NCBI GenBank assembly: GCA_001192655.1
Contig: BBVC01000036.1
Coordinates: 1-17,531, forward strand
Length of the DNA: 17,531 nt
Reading direction: 5' to 3'
Source: Caedimonas varicaedens
GTDB lineage: Bacteria > Pseudomonadota > Alphaproteobacteria > Caedimonadales > Caedimonadaceae
Each line of letters opens with the position of its first letter. The stretch's first letter is position 1. The notes below the pieces were generated by a model. That model made no database searches. It had not been told where the DNA came from and saw nothing but the letters and a program-made list of their open reading frames with translations. Below are positions 6,345 through 17,531 of the stretch, one piece after another. The translations under genes were made by a program, and so were the position numbers.

Positions 6345-7586
6345 ATGCATCATCTTCCAACTATTGATCATGTCGATGTCCAAGGCAAGACTGTTTTGGT
6401 GCGGGCAGACCTCAATGTTCCCATAAAGGAAGGGAAAATCCTTGACACTTCTCGCGTTGAGCGCGTCGTTCCCACTGTTGCGGAATTGATGCGAAAAGGC
6501 GCCAGTGTTGTTCTTCTTTCTCATTTTGGAAGACCGGAAGGGAAAGTCGTGCCTTCTCTGACTCTCCGTCCGATCGTACAGGTTCTCTCCCAGGCTTTAA
6601 AACAAGAAGTTTTTTTTGCCAACGATTGCATAGGAGAAAGTGCACGCACTACTATTACTTCCCTCAAGCCTGGTGAAGTTTGTCTGCTTGAAAATCTTCG
6701 TTTTGAGGCTGGAGAGGAAAAAAATGATTCTCTCTTTTCTGAAAAATTATCTCGGTTGGGAGATATCTATATCAACGATGGTTTTTCTGTGTCTCATCGT
6801 GCTCATGCTTCAGTTGAAGGCATTACTCACTTTCTTCCCAGTTATGCGGGGCGTCTTATGCAGGAAGAAGTTGAAGCGCTTCAACAATCTCTCGAACATC
6901 CTCAAAGACCTATCCTGGCTTGTGTGGCAGGTTCCAAGATTTCTACAAAGCTTGAGCTGCTGAAAAATCTTGTTTCCAAAGTGGACTATCTTGTTCTTGG
7001 CGGAGGGATTGCCAATACATTTCTTCTTGCCCGAGGAATTCCAGTAGGAGCATCACTTGTGGAAAAAGAGATGTTGCCTTTAGCCCAAAATATTGAGGAA
7101 GAAGCTCGGAAAAAAGGATGTACGCTTGTTTTGCCCATTGATGTTGTGGTGGCTATGGAACATGAAGATGCACTTTTTCATCAAGAGACAGGATTAAATG
7201 ATATTCAAACGAATCAGAAGATTTTTGATCTCGGACCATCTTCTTGCCAATTGATCAAAAATTTGTTGAAAGAAGTTAAAACGGTGGTCTGGAATGGCCC
7301 ACTTGGTGTTTTTGAACAGCCTCCCTTTGATACAGGAACCACAGACATTGCCATGGAAGTCGCACGCCTGACACGCGAGGGGAAAATTTTCAGCATTGCG
7401 GGTGGAGGAGAAACTGTAGCTGCTCTCAACTCTTCCGGTTCTGGTAAGGATTTCAGTTATCTTTCAACAGCAGGCGGAGCTTTTCTTGAATGGCTGGAAG
7501 GTAAAACACTTCCTGGTGTTGCAGCGCTTTTTGACGCTTCCCGGATCACGAGTAAAGAAGAGAACAAGATCAAAGAACCTGCTTGA
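6345..7586 (+). CDS. pgk: Phosphoglycerate kinase
   Basis: Contains VLVRADLNVP, LSHFGRP and a C-terminal GGGAFLEWLEGKTLPGVAAL. The ATG at 6345 is preceded by GAGAGGAGA. The track start at 6330 lacks an RBS. Confidence 0.95.
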   Translation: MHHLPTIDHVDVQGKTVLVRADLNVPIKEGKILDTSRVERVVPTVAELMRKGASVVLLSHFGRPEGKVVPSLTLRPIVQVLSQALKQEVFFANDCIGESARTTITSLKPGEVCLLENLRFEAGEEKNDSLFSEKLSRLGDIYINDGFSVSHRAHASVEGITHFLPSYAGRLMQEEVEALQQSLEHPQRPILACVAGSKISTKLELLKNLVSKVDYLVLGGGIANTFLLARGIPVGASLVEKEMLPLAQNIEEEARKKGCTLVLPIDVVVAMEHEDALFHQETGLNDIQTNQKIFDLGPSSCQLIKNLLKEVKTVVWNGPLGVFEQPPFDTGTTDIAMEVARLTREGKIFSIAGGGETVAALNSSGSGKDFSYLSTAGGAFLEWLEGKTLPGVAALFDASRITSKEENKIKEPA

Positions 7587-8628: not shown

Positions 8629-9570
8629 TTGGAATCCCTGATAAAATCTGAGAATTTTTTGGAAAATATTTTAGAGAAGTTTTTGGTGGAAACCAGTGGA
8701 AAGCTTCCCGCTTATATCCCCGAACTTTCTAAGGCCCGCCCTGAAAGTTTCGCCATCAGCATCGTGACGGTGGAAGGAAAAATTTTACAAGCAGGAGATA
8801 TCAAGACTTTTTTCACCATTCAATCCATTGCTAAACCTCTTGTGCATGGTTTGGCGCTTGAAACCCACGGAAGAGAAAAAATCTTGAATATGGTGGGGTT
8901 GGAACCGACAGGTGATAGCTATAACTCTATCAGGCTCCAGCCAGGGTCTCATCGTCCCTATAACCCGATGGTTAATGCTGGAGCTCTGGCTCTTTCAAGC
9001 CTTATTCCTGGTGAGAACCCTGAGTTGAGATTCCATACTCTTCAAAATCTCTTTGAAAGATATATCGGACACGTTCCTAACTTTGATGAACAAGTTTATC
9101 AATCAGAGAAAAAATTTGGCAACCATAACCGAGCTATGGGCTATTTAATGCTGAATTTTAAAGTATTACAAGGAGATGTTGAAGAGATTCTTGATGATTA
9201 TTGCAAGGAGTGCTCGTTTCTTGTCAATACAACAGACCTTGCCCTTATAGGGGCAACCCTTGCCAATGGTGGAAAGAATCCCCTGACTCAAAAACAAGCT
9301 ATTGATCCTGAATATCTCGCTGATATTCTTTCAGTCATGTTCACATGCGGTATGTATGATTTTGCAGGTGAGTGGGCCTATAAGGTTGGTATTCCTGCCA
9401 AAAGTGGTGTCAGTGGGGGAATTTTAGGGGTTGTTCCAGGAAAAATGGGGATCGGTGTTTATTCGCCACTCCTTGATAGTCGGGGAAATTCAGTCAGAGG
9501 CATTAAAGTATTTCAGGAACTTGCTGAAATCCTGCAATTTAATATCTTTAAATCGTCGAACCTTCTTTAA
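8629..9570 (+). CDS. glsA: Glutaminase A
   Basis: 313 aa with QSIAKP (Ser-x-x-Lys), NPMVNAGAL and PAKSGVSGGI motifs. The TTG start is preceded by AAGGAG. Confidence 0.92.
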   Translation: MESLIKSENFLENILEKFLVETSGKLPAYIPELSKARPESFAISIVTVEGKILQAGDIKTFFTIQSIAKPLVHGLALETHGREKILNMVGLEPTGDSYNSIRLQPGSHRPYNPMVNAGALALSSLIPGENPELRFHTLQNLFERYIGHVPNFDEQVYQSEKKFGNHNRAMGYLMLNFKVLQGDVEEILDDYCKECSFLVNTTDLALIGATLANGGKNPLTQKQAIDPEYLADILSVMFTCGMYDFAGEWAYKVGIPAKSGVSGGILGVVPGKMGIGVYSPLLDSRGNSVRGIKVFQELAEILQFNIFKSSNLL

Positions 9571-9830
9571 CGGGACTTGGACCTGGGAATAATAAGAAGA
9601 TGACCATGAGAAGTCGTTGCCTGGGAAGTGGTCGAAGCATTGGGAAGGACAGACTTTTTGGAAGAAGTTTCTGGATTTTTAAGATCCTCTATGCAATGAC
9701 ATGTTTGGGAGTTCTTATCTTGTGAAGACATTTGCTCCTTATCTTGTGAGGTCGTGTTTGAGGAAGAGTTTGTCTTCTCTGAATTTGATCTGCGCTTTGC
9801 CATAGATGAAGAAACCAACAAGGATACCAA
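9567..9830 (-). CDS. Questionable small Ser/Thr-rich ORF (possibly frameshifted secreted peptide, possibly non-coding)
   Basis: 87-codon ORF with a TTG start and low complexity (SSSNTTSQDKEQMSSQDKNSQ). It contains a 12-nt in-frame direct repeat, CTTATCTTGTGA, at 9714-9725 and 9738-9749. A second same-strand ORF (9862..9689, ATG start, MKIKYIIVF...) overlaps it in another frame. I recognise no family. Confidence 0.25.
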   Translation of the reverse strand: MVSLLVSSSMAKRRSNSEKTNSSSNTTSQDKEQMSSQDKNSQTCHCIEDLKNPETSSKKSVLPNASTTSQATTSHGHLLIIPRSKSR

Positions 9831-9840
9831 AATAAAAAAA

Positions 9841-10030
9841 CGATTATATATTTTATTTTCATGATGATAGATCTATTGAAAAAGTAAATTTTTGAGACAT
9901 ATTTTTTCTCTTTTTAATCTCGTCACATAAAATATCTTTTCAGATTATTATATTTTATTATTTAAAAATGTTAAACATTTTTGTCGTTTTTTCAATTTAA
10001 CTTTTTCTTTTTATATTATCTCATTTTTCA
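9841..10030. other. AT-rich putative DNA unwinding element of oriC
   Basis: About 83% A+T by direct count. It contains long A/T runs, AT-rich direct repeats and a 19-bp palindrome. Confidence 0.45.
9842..9960 (+). repeat. AT-rich direct repeat pair GATTA(T)TATATTTTATT
   Basis: 9842-9857 gattatatattttatt and 9943-9959 gattattatattttatt are identical apart from one extra T. They lie ~100 bp apart inside the AT-rich segment. Confidence 0.5.
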
Positions 10031-10057
10031 AAAGTTGTGGAGTTTTTACCAAAGAGG

Positions 10058-10066
10058 TGTGGATAA
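10058..10066 (-). promoter_or_regulatory. DnaA box, perfect consensus TTATCCACA
   Basis: The + strand reads TGTGGATAA, the reverse complement of TTATCCACA (9/9). Confidence 0.7.
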
Positions 10067-10124
10067 TTATGGGAAAGATCAATAACAGATCAAAAATTTT
10101 CTCTTTTCCCTCTTTTTCAAGATC

Positions 10125-10133
10125 TTTTCCACA
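10125..10133 (+). promoter_or_regulatory. DnaA box TTTTCCACA (8/9), head-to-head with weaker TGTGGTAAA at 10134-10142
   Basis: The + strand reads TTTTCCACATGTGGTAAA, two inverted boxes with no spacer. An AGATCT at 10120-10125 abuts it. Confidence 0.55.
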
Positions 10134-10218
10134 TGTGGTAAAAGCAGGGATAATCTGTGAGTAATTCTTCTCTATTAAAAAAATATAAGGATCTATATAT
10201 AGTTAATAATGGTAAAAA

Positions 10219-10227
10219 TGTTGATAA
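10219..10227 (-). promoter_or_regulatory. DnaA box TTATCAACA (8/9)
   Basis: The + strand reads TGTTGATAA, the reverse complement of TTATCAACA. Confidence 0.5.
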
Positions 10228-10252
10228 GGATATACACTCCACAGAGAGAAGT

Positions 10253-10261
10253 TTTTCCACA
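10253..10261 (+). promoter_or_regulatory. DnaA box TTTTCCACA (8/9)
   Basis: The + strand reads TTTTCCACA, the same variant as at 10125. Confidence 0.55.
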
Positions 10262-10286
10262 GGAACTACTATCCTCATCAATTATC

Positions 10287-10315
10287 TTAAGATAAAATAT
10301 ATTTAAGAGTATAGT
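10287..10315 (+). promoter_or_regulatory. Possible hemE promoter inside the origin region
   Basis: TTAAGA (10287-10292), a 17-nt spacer, then TATAGT (10310-10315), about 20 nt upstream of the ATG at 10337. This is weak evidence in an AT-rich background. Confidence 0.25.
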
Positions 10316-10336
10316 GTGGTATATTCATATCCTAAA

Positions 10337-11353
10337 ATGCTTAAAGTTTTGAAAGGAGAAAAAATTTCTCCCCCCCCCATCTGGCTTATGCGTCAGGCTG
10401 GAAGATACCTTCCTGAATATCGTACTCTTCGTCAAAAATGTCCTGATTTTCTTGAATTCTGCTTTACGCCAGATTTAGCTGTTGAAGCAACGTTACAACC
10501 CCTTCGACGATACGACCTTGATGCAGCTATTTTATTTTCTGATATTCTGGTCGTTCCCTATGCTTTGGGACAAAAAGTTGAATTTCATGAAGGAAAAGGT
10601 CCGCAACTCTCGCCTTTGCGATCCAGAAATGATATTTCAAATCTTGACCTTGATTCTTTTTTAGAAATACTTTTACCTGTTTTTGAATCTATCCGCAGGC
10701 TTCGTACTGTTCTTCCTACAGAAAAAGCGCTCATCGGTTTTGCGGGAGCTCCCTGGACAATTTTTGCGTATATGGTAGAGGGAAACACCAGTCGTACATT
10801 TTCTCAGGCTGTTCGATTTTTCTATCATAGCCCTGATGATGCACGTTATCTTATGGATTTCATTTGTGAAGCAACAGAAAGATATCTTTGCGCTCAAATT
10901 GAGGCAGGTGTTCAGGTCATTCAGCTTTTTGATTCGTGGGCGGGTGTTGTTCCTTATCCTTTGCTTGAAGATGCGGTTTATGCTCCTGTCCGCCGCCTAC
11001 TTCGTTTTCTTCAGCATAAATTTCCTCATATTCCCGTGATTTGTTTTCCGAAAGGTATAGGAGAAAAACTTCCCCTTTATTTGCAGACCACAGGCGCTAC
11101 AGCGCTTTCTATAGATTATCATGTTGATTTAAGTCTTCTTCTTCCTCAAATCCCTTCTCACATTATTCTCCAGGGAGCCCTTGATCCCCAGGTTCTAGTT
11201 GTCGGTGGTAAAACCCTCGAACAGGAAATTTCAAGACTCAAAAAAAGCTTGGCGGGACACCCTTATATCTTTAATCTGGGGCATGGAATTGTTCCGGAAA
11301 CACCGCATGAGCATGTCACGCAATTAATCCATATTTTGCATCATCAGGAATAA
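10337..11353 (+). CDS. hemE: Uroporphyrinogen decarboxylase
   Basis: Contains PPIWLMRQAGRYLPEY, FSDILVVP and a C-terminal FNLGHGI. I prefer the ATG at 10337 (MLKVLKGEK...) to the GTG at 10316. Confidence 0.93.
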   Translation: MLKVLKGEKISPPPIWLMRQAGRYLPEYRTLRQKCPDFLEFCFTPDLAVEATLQPLRRYDLDAAILFSDILVVPYALGQKVEFHEGKGPQLSPLRSRNDISNLDLDSFLEILLPVFESIRRLRTVLPTEKALIGFAGAPWTIFAYMVEGNTSRTFSQAVRFFYHSPDDARYLMDFICEATERYLCAQIEAGVQVIQLFDSWAGVVPYPLLEDAVYAPVRRLLRFLQHKFPHIPVICFPKGIGEKLPLYLQTTGATALSIDYHVDLSLLLPQIPSHIILQGALDPQVLVVGGKTLEQEISRLKKSLAGHPYIFNLGHGIVPETPHEHVTQLIHILHHQE

Positions 11354-12907: not shown

Positions 12908-14182
12908 ATGAATATTCCTTCGAAGTTGACAATTCGTGAATTAAAGTTGAAATCCCCAGCTGAACTTCTTTCTTTGGCTGAAGAAAATGCCATTGAAAAT
13001 GCAAGTTCTCTTAAAAAACAAGATCTTATCTTTGCTATTCTTAAGCAATTAGCGAATAAGGATATCCCTATCTATGGCGGTGGGATTTTAGAGACTCTCC
13101 AAGATGGATTTGGCTTTTTGAGATCTCCTGAAATGAATTATTTGCCAGGTCCCGATGATGTTTATGTTTCTCCCAGCCAAATACGTCGATTTAGTTTACG
13201 CACCGGAGATTCTTTGGAAGGACAAATTCGTTCTCCGAAAGATGGTGAACGTTATTTTGCTTTATTGAAACTTAATACTATTAACTTTGAAGATCCAGAA
13301 AAAGCTCGTCATCGTATTAATTTCGACAATCTTACGCCTCTTTATCCCGATAAAAAATTCACGCTGGAAATTGAGGGTGAGCCTAATAATAATTTAACTG
13401 GTCGAGTCATTGATCTTGTAGCCCCTTTGGGAAAAGGTCAGCGTGCCTTGATTACAGCGCCCCCTCGCTCCGGAAAAACAGTCATGCTGCAACAAATTGC
13501 ACATTCTATTACGACAAATAATCCAGAGGTTTATCTTATTGTTCTTTTAATTGACGAACGTCCAGAAGAAGTGACGGACATGGCACGTTCGGTCAAAGGA
13601 GAAGTTGTGAGTTCAACTTTTGATGAACCTGCTTCTCGTCATGTTCAAATTGCGGAAATGGTTATTGAAAAGGCCAAGCGTTTGGTTGAGCATAAGCGTG
13701 ACGTTGTGATTTTGCTGGATAATATTACACGACTTGCTCGTGCATATAATACGGTTGTTCCTTCTTCAGGTAAAGTTTTAACGGGTGGTGTTGATGCGAA
13801 TGCTCTTCAACGTCCTAAAAGATTTTTTGGTGCGGCACGTAATATAGAAGAAGGTGGATCTTTGACAATCATTTCTACTGCTCTGGTAGAAACGGGTTCA
13901 CGTATGGATGAAGTGATATTTGAAGAATTTAAGGGGACAGGTAATTGTGAAATTATTCTGGATCGTAAACTTTCTGATAAGCGTACCTTCCCTGCGATCG
14001 ATATTACGCGTTCTGGAACCCGTAAGGAAGAACTTCTTGTAGACAAAGATACACTCAAGAAAATGTGGGTTTTACGTCGTATTTTGGCACCCATGGGGTC
14101 AACAGAAGCTCTTGAATTTCTTTTGGATAAATTAAGATTAACAAAAACAAATAATGATTTCTTTTCATCTATGAATACTTGA
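12908..14182 (+). CDS. rho: Transcription termination factor Rho
   Basis: 424 aa. It has the N-terminal Rho_N region, an RNA-binding GFGFLR, Walker [18 protein letters not shown] and a C-terminal [15 protein letters not shown]. Confidence 0.97.
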
Positions 14183-14184
14183 GA

Positions 14185-14799
14185 ATGACACCCGCAAGTT
14201 TTTTTCAAGAGAAAGGCATTAATGTTTCACGTGAAACATTTCATCGTCTTCAGCTCTATGAAGAGACTCTTTTGAAATGGCAGACCTCTCATAACCTCAT
14301 TTCTAACTCAACAATTTCCTCGATATGGAAGCGTCATTTCCTTGATTCGGCTCAGTTGATTCCTTATATTTCTCCTTCAATCAAAACAATTGCTGATCTG
14401 GGAAGCGGAGCAGGATTTCCAGGGATGGTGATCGCTCTTCTTACAGAGATCCCGACGATTCTTATTGAGTCCAATCAAAAAAAAGAGTCTTTTTTACGAG
14501 AAGTCCAAAGAATCACACAAGCGCCTGTTACAATTTTATCGAAACGTATTGAAGATACACCATCACTTCAAGTAGATTTGATAACAGCACGAGCAGTAAG
14601 TCAACTCTCTACGTTGATGGAATATGCTTTTCTTCATTTAAATACTCATGGGTTATGTCTTTTTTTAAAAGGTAAAGATATTGAAAAAGAAATAAACGAA
14701 GCTCATAAAAAATGGAATTTTTTAGAAAAACAATATCTGAGTATTACTGATTGCACTGGCGTTATTTTAGAGATACAAAAGATAAGAAGAAAGCAATGA
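14185..14799 (+). CDS. rsmG: 16S rRNA (guanine527-N7)-methyltransferase
   Basis: Contains the SAM motif DLGSGAGFPGMVIA and has GidB-family length. The ATG at 14185 is 2 nt after the rho stop (the track TTG at 14179 overlaps it). Confidence 0.9.
   Translation: MTPASFFQEKGINVSRETFHRLQLYEETLLKWQTSHNLISNSTISSIWKRHFLDSAQLIPYISPSIKTIADLGSGAGFPGMVIALLTEIPTILIESNQKKESFLREVQRITQAPVTILSKRIEDTPSLQVDLITARAVSQLSTLMEYAFLHLNTHGLCLFLKGKDIEKEINEAHKKWNFLEKQYLSITDCTGVILEIQKIRRKQ
14223..14238. promoter_or_regulatory. parS centromere site, perfect TGTTTCACGTGAAACA
   Basis: This is an exact 16-bp match to the canonical chromosomal parS palindrome. The palindrome extends perfectly to 20 bp (14221-14240, AATGTTTCACGTGAAACATT). 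It lies in the 5' end of rsmG, ~0.6 kb upstream of parA. Confidence 0.85.
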
Positions 14800-16480: not shown

Positions 16481-16547
16481 AGTGTATTAACCTAGAAAAA
16501 TTGAGTTCGGAAGAGTGTGCAAGAAGTACGGGATAGAAATATTCTTA

Positions 16548-17362
16548 GGTATAGTGGTGAGCTTGTTTTTGACCATATTAGCTGCCTCAATCCACCACTG
16601 CCACGCCATGACGACTTTGAGAGATATGAAGGGAGATTTCTTTTAAATGCTGTTCTAAACTATAGTGATTGGCTGGGGCAAAACAAGAGTGGTGCATTCT
16701 CTCTAGGAAGGACACACAGCACCAAAATATATGAGGCGAGAAAAATTGCTGCTGTTTCGCCACACGAGGTCAGGTTCCCTTGCGCGGCCATATCCTTACC
16801 TCCCCTTGTTGTCCAACACGAGTTTCATCTTGAAACCAGACGTTCACGTTTTGAAGGTGAACCCCTTCGGGGAGGACGTCCTGCACAAGACTTACATACA
16901 AAAATTGAAACACGACCTCGTGTGGTTCGATCGCAACAATTCATGTATCACATACATTTATGGGAACATGTTCCCCCGACCACAATAAAGCTACAGTACT
17001 TACTTTATGCCAATATCCCCGCCATACAAGAATTTCTGGAAGAAATTTCCAAGAAATGTTGATTGAGGTAAACATGTTTTGGTTATGATGGATCGGGCGC
17101 CATGGTACACAACCGGTAAACTCCAAATACCTTTCCAACATCAGGTGTTATGGCTTCTCCCTTATGCTCCCTGCACTCAATCCTCAAGAAAGTGTTGGCG
17201 TGTTTTGAAAAATCGACATTTACACAATCGGGTCTTCAATTCAATGGACGATATTACTAAAGCTGTCTGTAATTCTTGAAACAATTTCATAAAAACTCAT
17301 GAACTTATAAATCTCTTTGCTCCAGAAAGTGGGCTAATTTATGATACTTACTTAATAAATTT
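16548..17362 (+). pseudogene. Decayed IS630-family (DDE_3) transposase relic, multiply frameshifted
   Basis: Transposase-like segments are spread over three + frames. They include TSFILKPDV and CITYIYGNMFP (16731 frame), LLYANIPAIQEFLEEISK (16517 frame), and VMMDRAPWYTTGKLQIP ... LPYAP ... WRVLKNRHLHNRVFNSMDDITKAVC (17079 frame). LNPQE is readable only in a shifted frame. The element is about 0.8 kb, shorter than an intact IS630. Boundaries are approximate. Confidence 0.75.
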
Positions 17363-17531
17363 GGTATAGCATACCCAAGAACTTTAAAAGATGAAGTCAT
17401 TGACTGCTCGGATGCAGTTCCGTTTCTTACCTTTTGGCAAGGGTAACCCTTTGTCTAACTATATATTTAAAAGAAATGTCAGAATTTTTCCACTGAAACA
17501 GTGATTTATTTCTACTCTGTTAGCGCCGGAG
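17363..17531 (+). mobile_element. Possible 5' end of a further IS630-family copy (degenerate N-terminal HTH region), runs off the right edge
   Basis: GGTATAGC at 17363-17370 is the exact reverse complement of GCTATACC at 171-178, the end of the left IS. Immediately downstream, YPRTLKDEVID resembles the conserved YSxDLRxKVID N-terminus of IS630 transposases. Stops and frame changes interrupt it, and there is no ATG (ATA at 17371). Confidence 0.4.

Follow-up and report, generated by a model that had tools for sequence, protein, structure and literature searches.

Background

Where does replication of the chromosome begin in Caedimonas varicaedens, a Caedimonas-related (Holosporales) alphaproteobacterium? 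The Caedimonas-related group consists of symbionts of protists, and hemE, the gene for uroporphyrinogen decarboxylase, is a marker gene of alphaproteobacterial origins. The sequence under study is a 17,531-nt stretch of contig BBVC01000036.1 (~40% GC; hereafter, the window), in which an initial annotation had placed a chromosomal replication origin (oriC) in the gap between glsA (8629-9570) and hemE (10316-11353, + strand). We find that the 288 bp immediately upstream of hemE, at 10028-10315, very probably constitute this origin, a function assigned from sequence features. The hemE-linked reading is supported by a cluster of DnaA boxes, by conservation of that cluster in nine lineages, by synteny, by a perfect parS partition site, by a switch in GC skew at third codon positions (GC3 skew) and by a control set of Bacteroidota loci.

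No origin description for Holosporales was found in the literature searched. A specialist would expect the hemE gap as the origin location in an alphaproteobacterium and would not be surprised by it; only the fixed geometry of the boxes and the question of where the duplex melts go beyond routine annotation. A likely origin fixes the replichore layout for uncultured protist-associated alphaproteobacteria, and offers a compact 288-bp candidate for replicating vectors or for growth-rate estimates from read depth in metagenomes.

Sequences and methods

The window was compared with related loci of ~13 kb each. L001 is a second strain of the same species, differing by ~1%. L003 is a metagenome-assembled genome (MAG) of a Caedimonas sp. 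with a HemE 72% identical to that of the window, and L004 is another MAG (HemE 64% identical). Six further family loci (L168, L169, L170, L171, L173 and L174) were obtained by protein search and contig look-ups, giving nine lineages in total with HemE identities of 62-86%, L168 being the closest (86%). Sister contigs are JGI metagenome contigs that encode an identical Rho protein; one of these, of 44 kb, is known as a gene map only. A look-up of exact ParB copies gave no match. Scanning metagenomes with a HemE profile recovered distant alphaproteobacteria only (≤52% identity); these served as a control and not for footprinting.

DnaA boxes were scanned against the consensus TTATCCACA, and box strength is given as the number of mismatches to it. 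Cluster statistics were based on dinucleotide-preserving shuffles of the 485-bp gap (n = 5000). Duplex stability was expressed as nearest-neighbour energy.

A cluster of DnaA boxes upstream of hemE

Six DnaA boxes had been reported in the gap, and sequence reading together with the box scan recovered each of them at its original coordinates. The boxes, with the array of which two of them are part, are as follows.

10058-10066, - strand: box B1, perfect, reading TGTGGATAA on the + strand; outermost left box
10125-10133, + strand: box B3, TTTTCCACA, one mismatch; head-to-head with the array to its right
10134-10164, - strand: array of three weak boxes in the same orientation with 11-bp phasing, TGTGGTAAA (10134), CAGGGATAA (10145) and TGTGAGTAA (10156)
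10134-10142, - strand: first box of the array, TGTGGTAAA, two mismatches
10156-10164, - strand: third box of the array, B4c, TGTGAGTAA, two mismatches
10219-10227, - strand: box B8, TGTTGATAA, one mismatch
10253-10261, + strand: box B9, TTTTCCACA, one mismatch; outermost right box, pointing towards hemE

Four weak boxes can be added to those originally reported: CAGGGATAA at 10145-10153, CTATCCTCA at 10269-10277, TGTGGAGTT at 10036-10044 and CACTCCACA at 10235-10243.

Four of the ten boxes in the window with at most one mismatch fall inside 204 bp of the gap. The shuffled gaps held a mean of 0.17 such boxes and a maximum of two, and 0 of 5000 reached four; with up to two mismatches allowed, seven boxes were counted where 2.2 were expected (P = 0.005, shuffles). 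Over the whole window the ten boxes compare with 4.8 expected, a count reached in 7 of 200 shuffles and only mildly above expectation. The gap upstream of hemE was the densest 250-bp box window of the entire locus in the window, L001, L003 and L004, the four loci included in that test. It is also richer in AT than its surroundings, as is expected of an origin (30% GC vs 41% for the window).

Box content upstream of hemE was then set against two control groups. Among 71 Bacteroidota hemE loci, the 450 bp upstream of the gene held 0.20 boxes vs a background of 0.16, which is no enrichment, whereas 72 other alphaproteobacterial loci held 1.1-1.2 boxes over the same distance vs a background of 0.06-0.08, a 15- to 20-fold excess. 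DnaA boxes are thus no general feature of hemE regulation.

A conserved core with a fixed box scaffold

In blastn comparisons, homology with L168 starts exactly at 10028 and continues into hemE. The resulting 288-bp conserved core (10028-10315) carries a DnaA-box scaffold common to the window and eight other Caedimonas-related lineages. An nhmmer profile of the core matched only family loci, with no homologue outside the family among the loci compared. Between the two strains of the species (the window and L001), the core has accumulated 0.36 differences per 100 bp, a rate similar to that of coding DNA, vs 2.4-2.9 in other non-coding DNA.

Five boxes (B1, B3, B4c, B8 and B9) make up the scaffold, with a fixed orientation of - + - - + and a fixed spacing, as determined from alignments and from a box census relative to the hemE start.

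B1 (10058, - strand): 58-78 bp to B3; in every relative it is found between -231 and -282 relative to the hemE start
B3 (10125, + strand): 31 bp to B4c, or 30 bp in L174, in the eight lineages with at most two mismatches in each of these boxes; L170 is the exception
B4c (10156, - strand): 63-64 bp to B8 in the same eight lineages
B8 (10219, - strand): 33-34 bp to B9 in seven of nine lineages; in L003 and L170 no B9 with at most two mismatches was scored

Across the nine lineages, 28 of 63 box columns (44%) are invariant vs 19 of 210 columns elsewhere (9%; Fisher P = 1.8e-9), with seven of nine positions invariant in B1, seven of nine in B3 and six of nine in B8. The core is therefore more conserved than the neighbouring non-coding DNA and its boxes are less variable than the rest, as would be anticipated for an origin. 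Defining box positions on the window sequence introduces some circularity, although conservation in independent lineages is not circular.

Several of the relatives have better boxes at the same places. B3 reads TTATCCACA in L004, L169, L171 and L173; the third box of the array is a perfect TGTGGATAA in L004, L169, L171, L173 and L174; and up to three perfect boxes occur in the gaps of relatives. Spacing within the array is 11/11 bp in the window and L003 and 10/12 bp in L004. The perfect B1 of relatives is flanked by one or two boxes in the same orientation at exactly 11 bp (TTGGGATAA / TGTGGATAA / AGGGGATAA), forming a second phased array around B1 (L004, 5727-5757; L169, -274 to -252 from hemE; L003, 5728-5747). 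Judging from the sequences, this second array is lost in the window and in L168.

One further element of the core lies between B4c and B8.

10165-10190: T-rich/A-tract block, TTCTTCTCTATTAAAAAAATATAAGG, with an invariant A5 run and conserved flanking T positions in the nine lineages

This block is a candidate bending site, accessory-protein site or promoter element. It has no match to the IHF consensus.

Gene order, partition site and skew

The reported run of seven + strand genes to the right of the gap (hemE, hemH, hemJ, rho, rsmG/gidB, parA and parB) was found as described, and its order is common to all family loci long enough to display it. hemE itself is identified by family TIGR01464.

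10316-11353, + strand: hemE, uroporphyrinogen decarboxylase (TIGR01464, 371 bits vs a cut-off of 303)
14223-14238: perfect parS palindrome, TGTTTCACGTGAAACA, 0 mismatches (0.1 matches of at most three mismatches expected by chance)

parS is the ParB loading site and marks the origin-proximal domain. The palindrome lies inside the 5' end of rsmG/gidB, 38 nt past its start; parA follows 0.6 kb downstream and the box cluster is 4 kb away, distances that suit an origin-proximal site of a ParABS system. It is identical and in the same place in L001-L004, and it was found in none of the other 158 loci compared. The 16 nt of parS double as gidB codons and as a predicted ParB site.

Third-codon-position GC skew of the + strand changes from -0.05 left of the gap to +0.21 right of it (Mann-Whitney P = 0.0015), and the difference holds for + strand genes only (P = 0.011; the range is short). 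The same change of sign is seen in L003 (-0.10/+0.15) and L004 (-0.04/+0.04). Its direction is that expected for an origin, over a 17.5-kb range that is too short to replace a whole-replicon analysis.

Weighing the proposed origin against its alternatives

Held against published features of hemE-linked origins (PMC1914354), the gap has the location, the DnaA-box cluster, the AT content and the conservation, and it lacks CtrA and IHF sites; the agreement is therefore good but incomplete. Several observations weigh against an origin here. The CtrA site TTAA-N7-TTAA does not occur in the window gap, and the sites of relatives are sporadic and not positionally conserved. Neither the window nor any of the nine family gaps contains the strict IHF consensus WATCAANNNNTTR, and the looser pattern WATCAN5WTR has no match in the window gap. 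DUF299/COG1806, which serves as boundary gene in Caulobacter and Rickettsia, is missing. Over the 17.5 kb, a range too short to judge, total GC skew is flat and without a V shape. No strict run of at least three DnaA-trios follows B9 in the window, which is below the published threshold for a basal unwinding system (BUS). Lastly, six of the ten window genes on the left side point towards the gap, head-on to a leftward fork. Co-orientation of genes with departing forks, which the initial annotation had pointed out for the rightward fork, thus holds on the right side and fails on the left, where eight further genes of a sister contig point the same way (see below).

Other searches for regulatory sites of this kind gave little. 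The loose pattern TTWW-N7-TTWW has 11 matches in the gap, which are uninformative because they are expected in AT-rich DNA. Neither full nor half CtrA sites are conserved in the family gaps, and GANTC is absent from the window gap and occurs at most once per gap in relatives. Since the published survey also includes origins without CtrA sites, in Ehrlichia and one Wolbachia strain (PMC1914354), such sites are not strictly defining. Judging by its sequence, the proposed origin seems to do without the CtrA and CcrM/GANTC control layer of Caulobacter. Alphaproteobacterial origins would then stay linked to hemE even where CtrA/CcrM sites are missing and the other flank is repeatedly rearranged.

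The strongest competing explanation, although an improbable one, is that the region controls transcription of the hemE-hemH-hemJ operon in a DnaA-dependent manner, or titrates DnaA there, and that replication starts elsewhere, for example next to dnaA. The core, whose right end is the ribosome-binding site of hemE, must hold the promoter of that gene, several promoter-like matches overlap the boxes, and an operator and an origin are inseparable by conservation alone; the flat total GC skew and the head-on genes of the left flank fit this explanation as well. However, five boxes and a phased array over 200 bp in a fixed geometry resemble an origin rather than an operator, and Bacteroidota hemE loci show no box enrichment. 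The origin-type synteny, parS and the GC3 skew switch likewise favor an origin. Moreover, the mapped origin of Caulobacter at the same hemE-adjacent locus holds hemE transcription start sites, and one Caulobacter hemE promoter is required for replication (PMC6393856).

Still less probable is a relic: an ancestral hemE-linked origin, recognisable to this day, would have been inactivated once rearrangement replaced its left flank, with initiation now at a different site. In favor of this, the left-flank rearrangement falls exactly on the core boundary (10028), the third box of the array is degenerate here (TGTGAGTAA) and perfect in five relatives, and the window has lost the tandem boxes that accompany B1 in L003, L004 and L169. 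A decaying origin is nonetheless difficult to reconcile with a core that evolves as slowly as coding DNA (0.36 vs 2.4 differences per 100 bp between strains) and with four strongest boxes that are intact. L168 also keeps the same core although its left flank differs, and the window lineage has the strongest GC3 skew switch.

The explanation that box-like words gathered by chance in an AT-rich spacer between genes is refuted: although AT-rich DNA yields many weak TTAT/ATAA-type words, the two weakest boxes have two mismatches and the whole-window excess is mild, none of the 5000 composition-matched gap shuffles reached the observed count, and position, orientation and spacing are kept in nine lineages with box columns preferentially invariant.

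If 10028-10315 acts as the origin, DnaA would first occupy the strong boxes B1, B3, B8 and B9. DnaA-ATP would next load cooperatively onto the weak boxes of the phased array, in the manner of the DnaA-oligomerisation regions of E. coli oriC, and the oligomer would open an adjacent AT-rich segment, leading to helicase loading. Forks would leave both ways, the rightward one co-oriented with hemE through parB, and ParB bound at parS 4 kb away would segregate the new origins.

Which AT-rich segment melts

Two AT-rich segments, one on either side of the boxes, compete as the site of unwinding. The features concerned are the following.

9831-10027: lineage-specific AT-rich tract, 17% GC, containing the unwinding element first proposed (9841-10020)
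9947-9974, - strand: best sigma-70-like promoter match in the gap, TTAACA-16-TATAAT (11/12), pointing left, away from hemE; a consensus match only
10262-10272: 4-nt G-rich spacer GGAA followed by CTA CTA, equal to two consensus DnaA-trios (3'-GAT-5') on the lower strand, as read from the sequence
10273-10312: hemE-proximal AT-rich 40-mer, ~17% GC, a conserved candidate unwinding site that holds the hemE ribosome-binding site AAGAG (10305-10309)

The initial annotation had taken 9841-10020 as the unwinding element on account of its 31 G/C in 180 nt. That count is exact, and the tract includes the least stable 100 bp of the window (9927-10026, 13% GC). The tract lies outside the core, and together with the adjoining region of an 87-aa open reading frame (ORF) it occurs only in the window and strain L001. 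It differs between these strains at 2.4 positions per 100 bp, 7 times faster than the box region, and no comparable AT tract is present on the left side in L168, L003 or L170. Its position, its absence from these relatives and its fast divergence lead us to demote it to a lineage-specific feature.

The segment next to hemE is conserved. The last 40 bp before the gene (10276-10315) have 17% GC, and the corresponding bin has 15-25% GC in the six lineages profiled. In L168, L003 and L170, the least stable 40-mer of the gap stops 3-4 nt short of hemE, and TTAAGAGTAT is conserved within this block. We slightly favor a melting site inside the conserved core, with 10273-10312 as the main candidate, over the tract at 9831-10027.

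The arrangement to the right of B9 recalls the BUS of Bacillus subtilis and other bacteria, which consists of a DnaA box, a GC spacer, DnaA-trios and an AT-rich region, and in which three trios are minimally required for B. subtilis origin activity (PMC8287927, PMC6669920, PMC7561715). The test applied here asked for three or more central-A trios within 16 nt after a DnaA box of up to two mismatches, on the strand whose 5'->3' direction leads to that box. As in a BUS, B9 has the required orientation and is followed by the 4-nt G-rich spacer, by CTA CTA and then by the AT-rich 40-mer. Unlike a BUS, the window has two consensus trios only, and the middle base of the triplet is variable in relatives.

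CTACTA is also found in L168, L169 and L174, and CTACTACTA, with three consensus trios, in L003, whose box has three mismatches. In relatives, a G/C-rich spacer and a CNA triplet periodicity recur. The two consensus trios of the window (CTACTA, spacer 4) have a chance rate of 0.17, and a permissive trio pattern (ATC CTC ATC, spacer 9), also present after B9, has a chance rate of 0.40. The 10262-10272 segment is a possible single-strand DnaA-binding element, and we treat it only as a lead because it has fewer than three consensus trios, because the chance rate of the permissive pattern reaches 40% and because the AT-rich block holds the hemE ribosome-binding site. To the left of B1, a trio or BUS arrangement was rejected, as the window does not match even the loose pattern there.

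Comparison with known origins

The origin of Caulobacter crescentus, Cori, has been mapped experimentally next to hemE (PMC6393856; PMC1914354). The Caedimonas region resembles Cori in that it adjoins hemE and has several DnaA boxes and an AT-rich segment (PMC6393856, PMC1914354). It differs in its boxes, which are near the E. coli consensus (one perfect and three with one mismatch) and unlike the weak W and moderate G boxes of Caulobacter. It also differs in having no conserved CtrA sites, no GANTC in the gap, no IHF consensus site and no DUF299/COG1806, and in a left flank replaced by glsA and a unique AT tract. Relatives of the window share one more likeness: their other flank leads into coaE-dnaQ, as the gene order at Cori reportedly does. 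Brassinga et al. are said to have described in 2001 that coaE-dnaQ follows DUF299-maf-aroE there.

Ioannidis et al. 2007 (PMC1914354), working by guidelines from Brassinga et al., predicted the origins of Rickettsia, Wolbachia, Ehrlichia and Anaplasma as AT-rich regions of 300-600 bp, with CtrA sites few or absent in several species. As in those intracellular alphaproteobacteria, hemE is kept as a boundary gene and the other boundary is rearranged, and the origin sequence is alignable among close relatives only (for our core, within the family only by nhmmer). Unlike those bacteria, the source of the window belongs to another taxonomic order (Holosporales-like, nearest to a Caedimonas MAG), and its region has a strictly conserved five-box spacing, no IHF match, and DnaA boxes that are more numerous and better (4-7 vs 2-4).

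E. coli oriC, as it is generally described, shares strong boxes at the ends that point outward, weaker arrays in the same orientation at ~11-bp phasing (one helical turn) and an AT-rich tract beyond a box reading TGTGGATAA. The two differ in genomic location and show no sequence homology, no IHF site was found here, and the GATC enrichment is mild (7 sites in a 745-bp gap) and not conserved in relatives.

A more specific model combines these features into a streamlined, CtrA-independent version of the alphaproteobacterial origin in Caedimonas-related Holosporales. A rigid five-box scaffold would join E. coli-type high-affinity boxes with helically phased weak ones, and a 40-bp AT block over the hemE translation-initiation region would be unwound, after a G/C spacer, through a deviant DnaA-trio (3'-GNT-5', with outer bases conserved and the middle one free); the left boundary would be a recurrent breakpoint. 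We offer this model tentatively, as one that is unlikely to be right in all its parts. Were it true, origin firing and hemE expression would be physically coupled.

The left flank

Three different left flanks are found in the family: glsA in the window, a trpR-like gene with an ABC transporter in L168, and coaE-dnaQ-secB-tim44 in L003, L004 and L169, where coaE-dnaQ (followed by secB and tim44) is divergently transcribed. Homology with L168 stops abruptly at window position 10028 (L168 3950). Taken with the head-on genes, the three flanks indicate that this side was rearranged repeatedly and that the left edge of the proposed origin is a recurrent breakpoint.

On the 44-kb sister contig, eight + strand genes for fatty-acid beta-oxidation lie to the left of the window start and also point towards the gap. 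They encode a fadL-like porin, an acyl-CoA ligase, a thiolase, a FadB-like protein, an acyl-CoA dehydrogenase, a thioesterase, a short-chain dehydrogenase/reductase (SDR) and a 191-aa unknown protein. Their head-on orientation to a leftward fork suggests that the block was recently moved or acquired.

The left limit of the gap depends on the 87-aa ORF (9567-9830, - strand), which is S/T-rich and of low complexity and is not called in the sister contigs. Searches found no family match, no similarity to the upstream gene of L168 and no homology outside its own species. Its low complexity, the missing family and the missing calls make it doubtful as a real gene. The 485-bp ORF-poor gap of the initial annotation presupposes that this ORF is a gene; otherwise, the glsA-hemE gap may be 745 bp. 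With 1 substitution in 260 bp between strains, the region matches coding DNA in its conservation. A 12-nt direct repeat, CTTATCTTGTGA, lies in it at 9714 and 9738. The ORF may be a remnant or encode a small secreted protein, or the region may give rise to a non-coding transcript from the promoter-like site at 9974-9947.

GATC occurs seven times in the 745-bp gap, or 9.4 per kb vs 4.3 per kb in the window. This enrichment is probably no Dam/SeqA-type signal because it is not seen in relatives. An Rfam search of the gap gave one sub-threshold miRNA match, which is meaningless; a scan of the gap for terminators found none; and a repeat search of the gap returned only short AT-rich chance pairs and the box palindrome at 10125-10142.

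Neighbouring genes

Across the family, rho is followed directly by rsmG/gidB, without mnmE and mnmG at the site (window 12908-14799; L003 8590-10463; L004 8597-10468; L170 3316-5204). In alphaproteobacteria, mnmE and mnmG usually lie between these two genes.

Within hemE, a run of nine C (10371-10379) encodes the Pro-Pro-Pro of the conserved SPPP motif and places a slippage-prone homopolymer in an essential haem gene. Further to the left, pgk (+ strand, ending at 7586) and ctaA (- strand, ending at 7457) are convergent with an overlap of ~130 nt (7457-7586), which is also called in the sister contigs. This is either an unusually long convergent overlap or the result of a mis-set 3' end in one of the genes.

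The region following parB (window 16481-17531; L001 13574-21275) differs between the strains by a 177-nt indel and 14 substitutions. Transposase genes follow the parB region (DDE_3, IS110 and DDE_Tnp_1, with Y1_Tnp in a sister contig), so that a variable zone rich in insertion sequences adjoins the partition locus.

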